A stretch of DNA of 64,000 nt from Octopus vulgaris (Eukaryota): the NCBI GenBank assembly GCA_951406725.2, contig OX597835.1, positions 20,770,001 to 20,834,000 of the forward strand, given 5' to 3'. The position numbers were made by a program, and so were the translations under genes. Of this stretch, positions 25,700-46,094 are shown piece by piece. Under the pieces are notes generated by a model. That model ran no database searches. It saw only the letters and a list, made by a program, of their open reading frames with translations, and was not told the DNA's origin. The stretch's first letter is position 1. Each line of letters starts with the position of its first letter.

Positions 25700-25900
25700 G
25701 TGAAATTTTGTTTGTTAGTGGGAGATAATTGGTAACCAAGGTATTTTTCAGTAAAGGGGAGCTAAATCTGTAATTCTGTTCTTCGGTATCTTTTTCAGGC
25801 TCTATGGTGCAAATCCTCCTTGCAAGGTTGAATGTGATCAATGTTTTCATATGTCTCTGGTGGCATGAGCTAAATGACAGGTACTGTCAAGCGTCTGTAT
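25700..25900 (-). pseudogene. Penelope-like RT/thumb remnant (inverted copy)
   Basis: TDA*QYLSFSSCHQRHMKTLITFNLARRICTI matches Penelope-type TDxxQYLxFxSCHPRHxKxxIPFNLARRI. Confidence 0.8.
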
Positions 25901-25907
25901 GAAAGAA

Positions 25908-26183
25908 AATTGGAAAAGAGTTTTGGACAACTGGTTTATCTTAGGGAATGAAAACAGATAAACTCATGGATTTCAAAAGACCCTTAATAGCATTAACACA
26001 AACATACAATTTACAAAGCAACACAACCAAGAGAAACTCCCGTCCCTCGACATGCTGGTTGAAAAATTAAACTAACAAATAGAAACGGACATATTTTACA
26101 AAACTACAGATGCTAAAGATAACATATTATTTAGCTCATGCTGCCTAAGGCTCATTAAAACAAGTATCTCCTTCAACCTTGCA
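25908..26183 (+). pseudogene. Penelope-like RT remnant
   Basis: NWKRVLDNWFI (decayed WKRYLDD)...LNSINTNIQFT...KLPSLDMLV...TDIFYKTTDAK...FSSC...FNLA. Confidence 0.85.
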
Positions 26184-40721: not shown

Positions 40722-41599
40722 CTGCTGGTGAATATACTATCTGTTACTTTTGCACCTGCGGTAGGGATGTCGATGATAATGACATCAAACTAGCATCACC
40801 GTCAACAGTTCCAAAGAGAACAACAATTATGTAAATACCGCGCTTTATATTTCTGCTCTTTACGTTTTTGGTCCGTGAAAGTTTCACGCCCATTGCTATC
40901 ACTGCAATTAGTTTTTATGCAATACTACCACCTCACCCTCGCCCATTCATGAAGCTATCTGTTTCACATTTATCACGATACTCATCCTCATTATCATCAT
41001 CACCACCACTACTACCGCCACCATCATCATCATCACCACTACCATTACAACCACCACCACCACCACTACCATCATCATCATCAATGCTATCACCATTAGT
41101 AACACAACCAACGCCGTCACTATGTCAACCCTCTTCTTCATCACCTATCCTACTAACACCATTGCTACTATCGAGAACAGCCACATGTGACACCACCAGT
41201 ACTTAAAGTATAATTACTAGTAATATCACATGTAGTAACAATACCAGCCAACAACAACAACACACCACCACCACTACTACCAGCGCTACCACTGTGACTG
41301 CCACAATTATAGCAAGGAACTTCATCATCAACAATAGCATCAGCATTATTAACGACAGGAAATCAACCACCACTACCGAGACTACTATTGCCTACACCAC
41401 TACTACTGCCACCAATACCATTACAATCAACACCACCACCAACACCACCACAATAATGTTGCCTATGCAGTGAAACTATCATCACAAGTATCATCGTCAT
41501 AAGCATAAACAACATTTCTGCTGCCATTACCCAAACCATCGACCCCACCACCAACGTCAACTGTATCATCAACACCAACACAATGATCACCATCAATAG

Positions 41600-42430
41600 C
41601 AGCAGCATCACCACCACAACCACCACTGTGACAACCATTTCAAGTACCACCGTCACCACCACCTCAAACACCACCGTCACCACCACCACAACCACCAAAT
41701 TCACTACCACCTCAAACACCACCGTCATCACCACCGTTACCACCACCACCGTAACTACCACCACAAGCACCACCATCACCACCACCTCAAACACCACTGT
41801 CACCACCACCTCAAACACCACCGTCACTACCACCTCCAACACCACCGTCACCACCACCATAACCACCATCGTCACTACCACCACAAGCACCACCATCTCC
41901 ACCACCACAACCACCAAAGTCACTACCACCTCAAACACCACCGTCATCACCACCGTTACCACCACCCACCGTCACCACCACACAAGCACCACCATCACCA
42001 CCACTGTCACCACCACCACAACCACCAAAGTCACTACCACCTCAAACACCACCGTCATCACCACCGTTACCACCACCATCGTCACCACCACCACAAGCAC
42101 CACCTCAAACACCACTGTCCCCACCACCTCAAACACCACCGTCACTACCACCTCCAACACCACCGTCACCACCACCATAACCACCATCGTCACTACCACC
42201 ACAAGCACCACCATCACCACCACCACAACCACCAAAGTCACTACCACCTCAAACACCACCGTCATCACCACCGTTACCACCACCATCGTCACCACCACCA
42301 CAAGCACCACCTGAAACACCACTGTCACCACCACCTCAAACACCACTGTCACCACCACCTCAAACACCACCATCACCACCACCTCAAACACCACCATAAC
42401 CCCCACCGTTACCACCACCACAACCACCAA
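41600..42430. repeat. ACC-derived minisatellite with higher-order structure
   Basis: Unit ACCACCTCAAACACCACCGTCACC and recurring longer blocks; translates as Thr-rich TTTSNTTV. Confidence 0.9.
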
Positions 42431-43527
42431 CAACTCAAACAGGATCAGCGTCAGCAACACGCTATCACCACCATCACCAGCATCATCAACACCACCCAAA
42501 CGACCATCGCAACCACCACGACCACCAGAGGTAATTACAATGAATCTACCCTTACCATGAATACCATCCCAATCACCATCACAATCGCCACAACCAGCAT
42601 CACCTACAACAAGAACACTGTCACTATCATCACCAACACCAACATCACCAACATCACCACTACCATAACAAACAACTCAACTAACACCACCACCAGCACA
42701 ACCGAGAACACCACCACCACAAACATCATCACCACCATCGCCACCATCGCAACCACAACCATCACAAGCACCACCGCCGCTACCATTATTCAACAAAACA
42801 GAAACGTCGATACCGTATACCACCGCTACCACTACTGCCACCAACATCGCAACCACCACCGCAACCACCAGCATAGGAAACAGCATCACTATTATCGCAT
42901 GACCTCTAACAACAACACGCCAGCAGCACCACCACTGCCGCCGCCGCCGCCAACGACCTCAGCAACAGTAACAAGAACGATAAAGACAACAACAAAAATA
43001 CAACATACAACAACAACAACAACAACAACGACACTATGGAGCACTATATTTCGGTTGTTTACGTCTTTGAACCAGTAGAAAGATATATAAAAGTCAATGA
43101 AACGATGTTATCTTTATTTGGCAAGGTCAAAATATTTCTTAAGGAGACGTATTTATCGATCTTTGATCAGATGTGATAAAATGAGATGAAGAAGGTGTGA
43201 AATAAATATTGATTTCTGATAAAGGCACAAGAACAAGTTATCTAGGTGATAGGTTTTGGCGATTCAGATAGAATTAAGTGTATAACTAACAGCATAAATC
43301 TAGCGATTAATTAAACGTTATTTTTTAATTCTTTTGCGCGCGGTTTTCAATATGTATGACCCCTTAACTTAATTATTAAAATCCATGCCGTTGGTCCATA
43401 TCAGATGTTTCCCTTAGAAAATTTTTATTTTTAATTACGCAAACTATACTAGCCAAAACTTATTCATGGCTCCTTTCTTTTACGTAAATATATGTGTGTC
43501 GACTCTTCGGCTGACCTGGCTAAATTG

Positions 43528-43571
43528 GACAATGCTGATGAGGTTTAATAGACAGAAACTTGTGCATAGTC
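43528..43571 (+). ncRNA. Type I hammerhead motif (slightly decayed)
   Basis: GACAATG-CTGATGA-G-GTTT-AAT-AGAC-A-GAAAC-TT-GTG-CATAGTC; helix I 6/7 paired. Confidence 0.6.
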
Positions 43572-43627
43572 TTCCCTTGTCCACAAAAGAAGATAAGACA
43601 AAATTGGGATTGAAGAAAGGAAGAGAG

Positions 43628-45194
43628 ATGGAAAATAGGCAAAGTTACGCAGCGGCAACGACACAAGGAATAAATGCCAACACCCTGGAAGTACAGAAAA
43701 TAGAAATTGACACAAGAAAGAGGAAGGAAGGAAGAAAATTTGTAAAAAAAGGAGGGAGTCAGTCTAAAGATGACTACCCCCAGAAGAACTGATGAAAAGC
43801 ATAGCGAAGAGGACGGTAGTATACAGAACGTTGTCTACGTCCTCGAACAAGATAGAATTAGCCCCAACAGAAGAAATAGAGGAATGCCTCAAAAATGTTT
43901 TAAAAATTGACCACATTCTATACACGTGGAGAAAAATATGGCTCAGTGGAAGTTAGGTTTGGCAACAAAGAAGATGTCATAAACCACTCCACGGACCCGT
44001 TACTGACAAAGAAATGGATACTACTTCTGACGTACTGTGGCAAACGCGTTGCCAGAGCGAGAGTTGGAAGAGCCCCCCCCCCCCCAGCCCACCCCGAAAT
44101 CGAGGAAACTGGCTGGTGGCAGCCATAATGCACGATATGAAGGATGGGGTAGAGATCCTCAAGATAACGAGGATCTAAAAGGTCAATTGGCCTGGATATG
44201 GCCTCGAAGTGGCCCATGCAGGTTTCTTTGGAAGACTTGCATAGTAGAACGGCAGAAATGATACTCCCGGAAGACACCAGACTTCGAATAACAGTAGCAG
44301 GAAGACCACCAACATGCTTCCTATGTGGCAAAAAAAGGGCACATCAAAGTAAGATGTCCCGAGAAGGAAAATGAAGAGAAGAAATGTGTAGGAAACAATA
44401 CCGAAGAGGTAGTAACAACAAAAGAGACAGATAGAGTGGAGAAACCCTTCACAGTAGTAAACACGAGGAAGAGAAAGAAACGGGTGAATTCTCACCCAGA
44501 GTGTCAAAAAAGGCTAAAAGGCTAAAAGAGATTGTGATGGAAGAAAAAAGAAATAGGTGTGAAGTACCACCAGCAGCAGTCGTGAAAGAAGGCATACAAG
44601 AAAAAACAGCATTACAACAGAGGAAACGTTCATAAAATTGGTTATGATGATTCTGCTGGACCAAAGAGATCAGGATGGGAGCCGAAGCAAGCAGAAGTGA
44701 AAAGGACGAGATATAAGTGGCATTTGGTCACGTATACCAAAAGTAAAGGAATAGAGAAAACGATTGTAAAATAAGCATAATTAAATCTCAGAATGAGATT
44801 GAAACAGTAATCGCTCGATAATGTAAAGTATAGAAGCCATCTTATCATGGCTAACCACATTAGGGAGGGGGTGTTACTGTAGCTTTATAGCCCCAAGAGA
44901 TCTTCGTCTCAAGCTGGCTTTAGACACAATATCAGTGTCCTTGGAGTATTTGCAAAGGGAGGCCATCCCTTCCTCGCAAGCCTGAGTGTAAAATATAAAT
45001 CGGTAATAAGAGTAAAGCTGCCGCCAGGAAAATACCCGGAATACACTAAAGGAATGGTCATAGATAAAGAGGGATTTTTGAAATTAAGAGAGATGTATGA
45101 AGATTTCATAGACACGCTGAGGGTTGAGGTCGAGTTTGACGAGCTGCCAACGGTCGTGGAATTAGACGATTTGAAACCATTTATGAACATGTAA
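43628..45194 (+). pseudogene. Decayed Gag/ORF1-like CCHC zinc-knuckle protein gene (Tx1/L1 ORF1-like)
   Basis: MENRQSYAAAT start; TVAGRPPT-CFLCGKKGHIKVRC at 44315-44357 (one extra A); several frameshifts; stop-free frame 44883-45194; A-rich tail after. Confidence 0.72.
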
Positions 45195-45413
45195 AAACAA
45201 GTAAGTAAAATTTGTACTACATATAAAAAAAAAACGAGGAAAATAAACTGTTAAAAAATTTAAAGAAAAAAAGGAAAAGAAAAGATGATAAAAAACAAAC
45301 AAAAGACTAAGAAAAAGAACAAGCTAAAAAAGAAAAAAGACTGTAAGAACGTTTAACTGTAAAAAAGTAATCGCGGTTTCGTCTCGGAGCGGGACCGAGA
45401 AGACCGACTCATA

Positions 45414-45806
45414 TCTTTATATATAAAAGCGAGGTTGTGTGCTGTCTTTCTCCTACGATTTAGATTCCTAACTACTCCCACATTTTGCGGTGCAGTTTAA
45501 CCAAAACCGGGTATCTTATAGTCGTAATTCCTATCGAGCCCTTCTGGGTATTAGCGCACGTCTACGATGAGTCTACGATTTAAAAGAAAATTACCATCAA
45601 TTTTTACCATTTTTAATGCATTTTTGGCATATATAATGGAAGTAACTCTCTAAAATTTATTATTAAAACTCAGAACGTAAAAAGCTACAGTAACACCCCC
45701 CTTTGTGGTTAGCCATATTGAGATGGCTATTATACTTTACATCTCTAAAAATGTTTATATAGTTATTTCCCTTACAAACCCGAGCAACGCCGGGCGATAC
45801 TGCTAG
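45414..45806 (+). mobile_element. Non-autonomous Helitron
   Basis: A|TCTTTATATATAAA...CCCGAGCAACGCCGGG-CGATACTG-CTAG|T. Confidence 0.87.
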
Positions 45807-45926
45807 TTCATTATAATTTAATTCATTGTAATTCATTCTTTCATATGTTTTTGTGTTCCCGCATGTTCGTGTATGTCCTCTCTGTATTCAAGCCTTGTGC
45901 CTATAATAAAGAAAAACGGTGATTGC

Positions 45927-45971
45927 CACACGCTGATGACGGGTCAATACCCAGAAAATTGAGTCCGTGTG
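45927..45971 (+). ncRNA. Type I hammerhead ribozyme motif with GUC site
   Basis: CACACG-CTGATGA-C-GGGT-CAAT-ACCC-A-GAAA-ATTGA-GTC-CGTGTG; perfect 6-bp helix I. Confidence 0.72.
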
Positions 45972-46094
45972 TATCACGTCAGATTGAAGATGGGAAGGGT
46001 GGCTTCCCTTTGCAAATACAGAATGTGTGTCAATTGCCAGCTGGAGAAGGGTTGGCCACATTTAAGTGGAAAATATACTTCACGATATATATAT

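Follow-up and report, generated by a model that had tools for sequence, protein, structure and literature searches.

A 64,000-nt stretch of the Octopus vulgaris genome (contig OX597835.1; hereafter the window, in whose numbering positions are given) holds a protein-coding element lying among type I hammerhead ribozyme motifs, which an original prediction took for a coding retrozyme. Our results favor another explanation: the element is most likely a 5′-truncated, decayed long interspersed nuclear element (LINE) of the L1/Tx1 group that carries only the first open reading frame (ORF1), was probably moved by the reverse transcriptase (RT) of full-length relatives, and lies, as do most of the relatives examined, at the likely transcription start site of a hammerhead-bearing repeat (probability about 0.8). 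It is a copy of ~1.8 kb of an ORF1-only, HAL1-like LINE and part of a very large, partly young system. Observed are ORF1 homology, the lack of ORF2, a common 3′ tail, target-site duplications, elements with apurinic endonuclease (APE) and RT domains at the same sites, mixed arrays, and purifying selection.

As predicted, the ATG at 43628 opens a frameshifted ORF whose CCHC knuckle is split near 44335; its decay comprises several frameshifts and one insertion. A protein search with ORF1 gave 18,402 candidates, and many of the best 150, which were scored, have open frames of 440–490 aa, some of them identical; the named relatives come from Octopus species and Argonauta. The ORF1 of family A, the family of the window's ORF1-only copy, aligns with an autonomous ORF1 directly upstream of an APE-RT ORF2 (33% over 180 aa, E = 3e-32), and this homology identifies the window ORF as ORF1 from a LINE of L1/Tx1 type. 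The predicted model of a 39%-identical relative contains two RNA recognition motif (RRM)-like domains (predicted local distance difference test score, pLDDT, 79; best Z 8.6, root-mean-square deviation 2.6, 78 aligned). The ratio of nonsynonymous to synonymous substitution rates is 0.11–0.23 in six between-subfamily pairs and 0.50 and 0.68 in two within-subfamily pairs, with one further pair saturated; judged by these ratios, ORF1 is under purifying selection in the relatives. A retrozyme as the whole element was rejected on this point, as retrozymes are non-coding.

The conserved C-terminal domain (L147:5698-6045; window 44987-45191) has a confident predicted model (pLDDT 91). It gave no Pfam family above the cutoff, no PDB sequence match, no Atlas match, and no Foldseek match at E 0.001 (best Z 5.0, no clear structural match), and a search of six autonomous ORF1 regions did not reveal it. 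A 103-codon stop-free frame singled out by the prediction belongs here in part: its first ~34 codons come from an inserted antisense hammerhead-repeat fragment, and the remainder is the ORF1 C-terminus (79% to L009). A tree was built from 18 natural ORF1s, with 5 rows omitted because of their shortness. Of its 11 ORF1-only rows, 9, family A among them, cluster apart from the autonomous ORF1s with support of 94/93, below the starred level, a pattern compatible with one origin of the ORF1-only lineages or with several.

A genome search with family A gave 1,950 candidates, of which the best 40 were scored, yielding 29 loci besides the window (76–87% identity) whose junctions were classed by eye. 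The 3′ end is visible in 23 of them, and in none of the 23 does an ORF2 follow ORF1; nor did two LINE ORF2 queries give an APE/RT match anywhere in the 64-kb window. The prediction of a protein-coding, RT-less element moved in trans holds in this respect, the step in trans being one that we infer. The 23 copies are followed by the same hammerhead unit (19), another hammerhead (2), or a target remnant plus other sequence (2). On the 5′ side, 11 of the 29 copies adjoin the upstream half of the unit, 8 the tail of another element, and 1 a duplication at another target; L004 has a 15-bp duplication ahead of a different hammerhead. Short non-coding derivatives of family A, with the first ~200 nt joined to the last 230–375 nt, lie in the same array in L003 (867-1309, 3183-3745). 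In four runs guessed to be RNA, of which only contigs were available, the hammerhead unit is covered, as are parts of the cassette, and some joints bypass the cassette; neither feature was used as expression evidence.

The two predicted sense type I hammerhead cores are present (Table 1); the element is nevertheless not bracketed by them. All 22 other copies examined have a different 5′UTR in place of the 5′ hammerhead, and the 5′ motif lies in a repeat of its own with four other matches (68–82%), none followed by the ORF; it is thus not part of the LINE. The 3′ motif sits in the insertion target, beyond the target-site duplication. A coding retrozyme needs a hammerhead at both unit ends in most copies, and this identity was rejected: the ribozymes belong to other repeats, an APE-RT LINE with the same sites and tail, rather than a Penelope element, was the likely mover, and no sign of a circular coding RNA was obtained. 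A Penelope-like element was likewise rejected, as no ORF with RT and GIY-YIG domains lies within the element and 24 of 25 Penelope loci lack a match to the 355-nt hammerhead unit. Three smaller features were reassigned. CUGANGA is absent from the supposed antisense hammerhead-like half in every copy shown, and this stretch is a conserved hairpin of the 3′UTR in sense orientation; the supposed tail remnant of a short interspersed nuclear element (SINE-C) is the element's own 3′ tail, found also in autonomous LINEs and SINEs; and the unpaired A before GAAA takes part in the first pair of stem II (C-A or G-A in the window motifs; A-T, T-A, G-C, G-T, or T-T in relatives).

Both window hammerheads look damaged. 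The 5′ one has a G at H17 and one stem III mismatch and is likely inactive, and the 3′ one has one stem III mismatch; Rfam scans did not call the 5′ motif and gave no hammerhead call for either, and in single-strand folding neither folds better than shuffles. Among 39 related motifs the stems covary: 27 combine a cleavable H17 with a self-complementary stem III (13 different sequences, counting G-U as a pair), and in 29 stem I is paired at no fewer than 4 of its 5 positions. Covarying stems and a self-complementary stem III are likewise described for metazoan type I hammerheads (PMC4209133, PMC7229834). The unit itself, whose monomer length of 355 nt is given by the spacing in L044 and L053, fits a non-LTR (long terminal repeat) retrozyme in its short tandems, its type I hammerhead, and its covarying motif; self-cleavage and a circular RNA would be expected of such a unit. 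In a genome search with it (3,145 candidates, 30 loci examined), 21 of the 30 loci are empty sites without a LINE tail in front and 9 have a tail, these tails deriving from at least three diverged ORF families. The hammerhead-repeat superfamily is large and diverse, with core variants CCGAUGA, UUGAUAA, and UUGACGA and a conserved upstream palindrome and TATA box.

Target sites were compared at 70 loci picked by protein match alone (30 from the ORF1 search and 40 from the remaining rows outside fetched arrays). A recognizable tail is found in 63, and 45 of the 63 show target-site duplications of 9–23 bp (5 doubtful ones removed by eye); a duplication score of at least 12 is reached in 39 of 63, compared with 13 of 189 null pairs. 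The 45 duplication-bounded relatives are 1.57–2.54 kb long, and ORF2 matches occur only upstream, in 2 of the 70 loci. In 37 of 63, the tail is followed by a hammerhead core at a distance of no more than 90 nt (controls 4/308; antisense 0/63). These hammerheads represent several unlike subfamilies, and every duplication matches its own local target; a reading of a 12-bp repeat as a split direct repeat or a pseudo-LTR (pLTR) was dropped, as the duplications track the local target. A TATA-like 7-mer starts 18–42 nt upstream of the duplication at 39 of 41 primary sites and in 6–22 of 41 control windows, whose counts are inflated because flanks are shared. When 57 sites (16 read by eye) were collapsed into 11 non-homologous target classes, including hammerhead repeats, a Helitron, a Penelope-type repeat, and others, 10 of the 11 had a TATA-like box 20–41 nt upstream (background 0.21–0.23, P ~ 4e-6). 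The hammerhead adjoins the element because hammerhead repeats carry the ribozyme 15–35 nt after the likely start site.

The 5′ ends are informative as well. In L123, L124, and L142 a foreign 5′ extension of 13–15 nt matches the target of another locus, and copies at U2 genes begin with start bases of the hammerhead unit; such bases are the expected residue of transcription from a host promoter. The 5′ ends of L340, L189, and L339 were not located. At the 5′ junction of L135, an ORF1-only copy, ~25 nt presumably resemble the start of U1 small nuclear RNA (snRNA), a call that Rfam did not make.

The 3′ tail is common to family A, autonomous APE-RT LINEs, other ORF1-only families, and local SINEs. 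The ORF2 of the autonomous elements matches the APE and RT families PF03372 and PF00078 of Pfam, relatives carry PF13966 as C-terminal zinc domain, and the closest PDB relative is human L1 ORF2p (E = 7e-65); these partners probably belong to the Tx1 clade, an assignment based on their target specificity. ORF1 cassettes stand in head-to-tail arrays with subfamilies mixed, and three arrays end in ORF1 plus an APE-RT ORF2. Thirty ORF2-bearing elements comprise 11 directly before a hammerhead, 7 before a target remnant and another element, and 12 that did not resolve; full ORF1–ORF2 copies occur among those at hammerhead sites. In a young autonomous family, 30 copies (classed partly by eye) lie before the hammerhead unit (20), before a unit remnant (3), at the U2 start (5), or elsewhere (2). 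In one of them, L326, the insertion point is +1 of a complete U2 gene (Rfam 185 bits), the duplication runs from about −6 to +14, and the element shares 99.6% identity with copies at hammerhead sites. The U2 site of the LINE Keno, which is compared below, is presumably internal. Autonomous LINEs at +1 of intact U2 snRNA genes, some in tandem, are seen in L326 (8722-8915), L329, L331–L333, and L342.

These observations suggest the following course. The element is probably promoterless and transcribed from the TATA/initiator of its host repeat. ORF1p would, with good probability, package its own RNA in cis while the tail recruits the ORF2p of a relative; for TRE5-A.2, mobilization in trans and a cis preference of ORF1p are on record (PMC3159450). 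Target-primed reverse transcription at the start site would very probably duplicate 9–23 bp, and the next copy would enter the regenerated site ahead, producing arrays. Site choice could be aided by the Pol II initiation complex or by open promoter DNA together with a short nicking preference, for which we see slightly less than even odds. More tentatively still, the LINE system may home to Pol II start sites of every kind through tethering to the initiation machinery, with promoterless lineages, both autonomous and ORF1-only, settling on retrozyme, Penelope, Helitron, and snRNA promoters, and with the diverged ORF1-only proteins and their C-terminal domain of unmatched fold serving as interchangeable targeting or packaging modules.

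Site choice might instead follow sequence only, an alternative that we hold at not quite even chances: each autonomous family would have one endonuclease word, ORF1-only copies would follow their mover, and the words would lie at start sites since promoterless lineages survive only there. One autonomous-type family of at least 131 copies (96–100%) indeed keeps to a single Helitron word in 27 of 30, the hammerhead and U2 sites of another both read TT(C/T)ATCG, often with CGG 4–6 nt later, and Tx1 targeting is stated to be endonuclease-led (PMC4494074). Yet GAG1 copies with 94–95% protein identity are found within hosts as unlike as a Helitron and a Penelope-type repeat, the words used by family B are many and dissimilar but keep a constant distance from the TATA, and a 7-nt word is expected, by arithmetic, several hundred thousand times in 2.8 Gb.

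Several points weigh against an ORF1-only LINE at promoter start sites. The 5′ junction lacks target sequence in 9 of the 29 family A copies, as in the window copy; the TATA match is missing at 3 of 12 family A primary sites; and in the tree of 18 ORF1s none of the autonomous elements carries the ORF1 of family A itself. Of the 57 sites, 44 form one homologous class. Site L246 has no TATA, L340 is joined to Penelope coding sequence, L326 shows no clear TATA at U2, and 4 of the 5 U2 copies lie within one cluster. The start sites are putative, being deduced from TATA spacing, U2, and 5′ extensions. Lastly, the sites of the young family have TT(C/T)ATCG in common, so sequence alone may explain these sites.

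The missing 5′ targets also bear on a different possibility, that the element and its downstream hammerhead unit additionally move as one ribozyme-cut RNA through a Penelope-type RT, a weaker version of the predicted coding retrozyme, with the window copy a 5′-truncated product. The 3′ unit is kept and the 5′ target missing in those 9 of the 29 as well as in the window copy, an inverted unit lies upstream of several full copies, and one Penelope RT fragment is flanked by unit pieces. But the 3′ end is missing instead in 6 of 29 copies, as expected from later insertions or deletions, and inverted units occur also without any ORF (L057, L060, L065). Distances of cassette and unit are uncorrelated (Mantel rho −0.10, n = 14; a weak test, positive control 0.16), and the same unit subtypes are common to two family A subtypes (by eye). 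A Penelope partner with the 355-nt unit as terminal repeat was sought in 25 loci and found in L088 only, the other 24 having no such ORF. Co-mobilization is thus unlikely in our view. At L088/L050 (G000:C15:17541033-17545053), a Penelope RT/GIY-YIG fragment lies between hammerhead-unit pieces with an inverted full unit upstream, an arrangement that suggests template switching by a shared RT.

We regard as more doubtful still that the hammerhead is chosen for use, cutting the read-through transcript ~50 nt past the tail so that target-matching bases guide priming at the next repeat. A cleavable architecture in 27 of 39 hammerheads beside insertions and the blending of tail and target bases at 3′ junctions would accord with such a role; however, the same families lie at Helitron, U2, and other sites without a hammerhead, every tail has its own AATAAA, and within arrays the hammerhead stands behind the last element only.

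HAL1 (half-L1) is also a non-autonomous L1-group element with ORF1p only (PMC5753468), but the octopus elements are site-specific and array-forming, comprise many diverged lineages, and have the extra C-terminal domain. Tx1 (targeting Tx1D) and Keno (targeting U2) are target-specific APE-RT LINEs of the Tx1 clade, with U2 genes or a non-autonomous DNA transposon as their sites; for this group, SINEU included, tandem insertions with a common duplication are described and upstream host DNA is proposed as promoter (PMC4494074, PMC4640811). They differ from the octopus elements, whose targets include hammerhead repeats and many unlike promoters, whose U2 insertion is at +1, and which have protein-coding ORF1-only partners. 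The Dictyostelium pair TRE5-A.1/TRE5-A.2 is of L1 type; one partner has ORF1 only and is moved in trans, ORF1p prefers its RNA in cis, and the insertion position is fixed with respect to a transcription complex (PMC3159450, PMC5911963), the octopus tethering being hypothetical. TRE5 elements target Pol III genes, ~50 bp upstream and in opposite orientation, through TFIIIB, and have their own promoter, whereas the octopus insertions are in sense at likely Pol II start sites. Drosophila HeT-A/TART share mixed head-to-tail arrays and ORF1-only lineages that spawn new ORF1-only lineages (PMC13534243); they are of the Jockey clade and telomeric, whereas the octopus arrays lie at interstitial positions inside other repeats. 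The target unit resembles non-LTR retrozymes and Penelope pLTR hammerheads in its 355-nt length, partial tandems, type I fold, and short palindromic stem III (PMC7229834, PMC4209133, bioRxiv 10.64898/2026.07.22.740005). Retrozymes are non-coding, unlike the octopus ORF, which belongs to the inserted LINE. The octopus system unites lineages with ORF1 only, as in HAL1, a site specificity like that of Tx1, and arrays like those of HeT-A; its targets are hammerhead repeats and likely start sites. A 2026 Octopus repeat annotation, in the part available, merely tabulates active L1-Tx1 families (PMC13282606), and the literature in full text, with Repbase/Dfam entries and subscription papers outside this scope, gave no description of Tx1 elements targeting hammerhead repeats or start sites, although the families may already be catalogued.

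Hammerheads beside Gag-like ORFs, a trap for genome scans, are explained here without a new ribozyme-coding element. What emerges is an active LINE system that lives off the promoters of other mobile elements and U2 genes, and it bears on the persistence of ORF1-only LINE lineages under selection. Were tethering true, it would be a Pol II counterpart of TRE5/Ty3 targeting, and the near-identical young copies make direct testing possible.

Table 1. Features of the element and its surroundings in the window.
Feature	Positions	Strand	Remarks
Older, separate hammerhead-bearing repeat, outside the LINE	43380..43595	+	Core 43535; 4 further matches; no copy upstream of 22/22 others
Element start, 5′-truncated	43607..43627	+	Full copies have ~170 nt of extra 5′UTR
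Decayed ORF1	43628..45194	+	Two RRM-like domains, CCHC knuckle, charged linker, ~110-aa C-terminal domain
Later insertion, antisense hammerhead-repeat fragment	44774..44986	-	72–74% to local unit; TGTAAAATA repeats at both edges
A-rich 3′UTR with conserved hairpin	45195..45413	+	Spans the predicted antisense half
Non-autonomous Helitron-like insertion	45414..45806	+	TC...hairpin-CTAG, placed between A and T; copies in L010, L016
LINE 3′ tail, AATAAA at end	45807..45916	+	Common to autonomous APE-RT elements, other ORF1-only families, local SINEs
Target word, 3′ copy	45916..45929	+	On both sides in full-length copies; 5′ copy absent in window
Hammerhead repeat unit, the insertion target	45917..46086	+	355-nt monomer, internal deletion here, (TA)n end, core 45933

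The insertion within ORF1 is found in the window copy only, and the TGTAAAATA repeats bordering it are 9 bp long. The Helitron insertion was correctly predicted; it has TC...CTAG ends and an AT site, and a hammerhead-unit piece of ~65 nt lies inside it (45678-45742). Elsewhere in the window, Penelope-type RT fragments occur in both orientations (25719-26183), and a long, imperfect CAC/ACC-rich tandem array lies upstream of the element (41443-42960).

Arrays beyond the window are of two kinds. Tandem, near-identical 5.3-kb autonomous LINEs, with a 1,132-aa ORF2 intact in several units, stand at G000:C27:32953173-32985823 and C30:10433730-10450457. Mixed ORF1-only cassettes, up to 10 or more per array over 10–20 kb, are found at G000:C4:70018001-70058000, C14:37730001-37750000, C1:142943001-142973000, and C8:56777001-56807000. 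These four loci are nested in a non-autonomous Helitron, the 3′ part of which holds a decayed ORF1 fragment.

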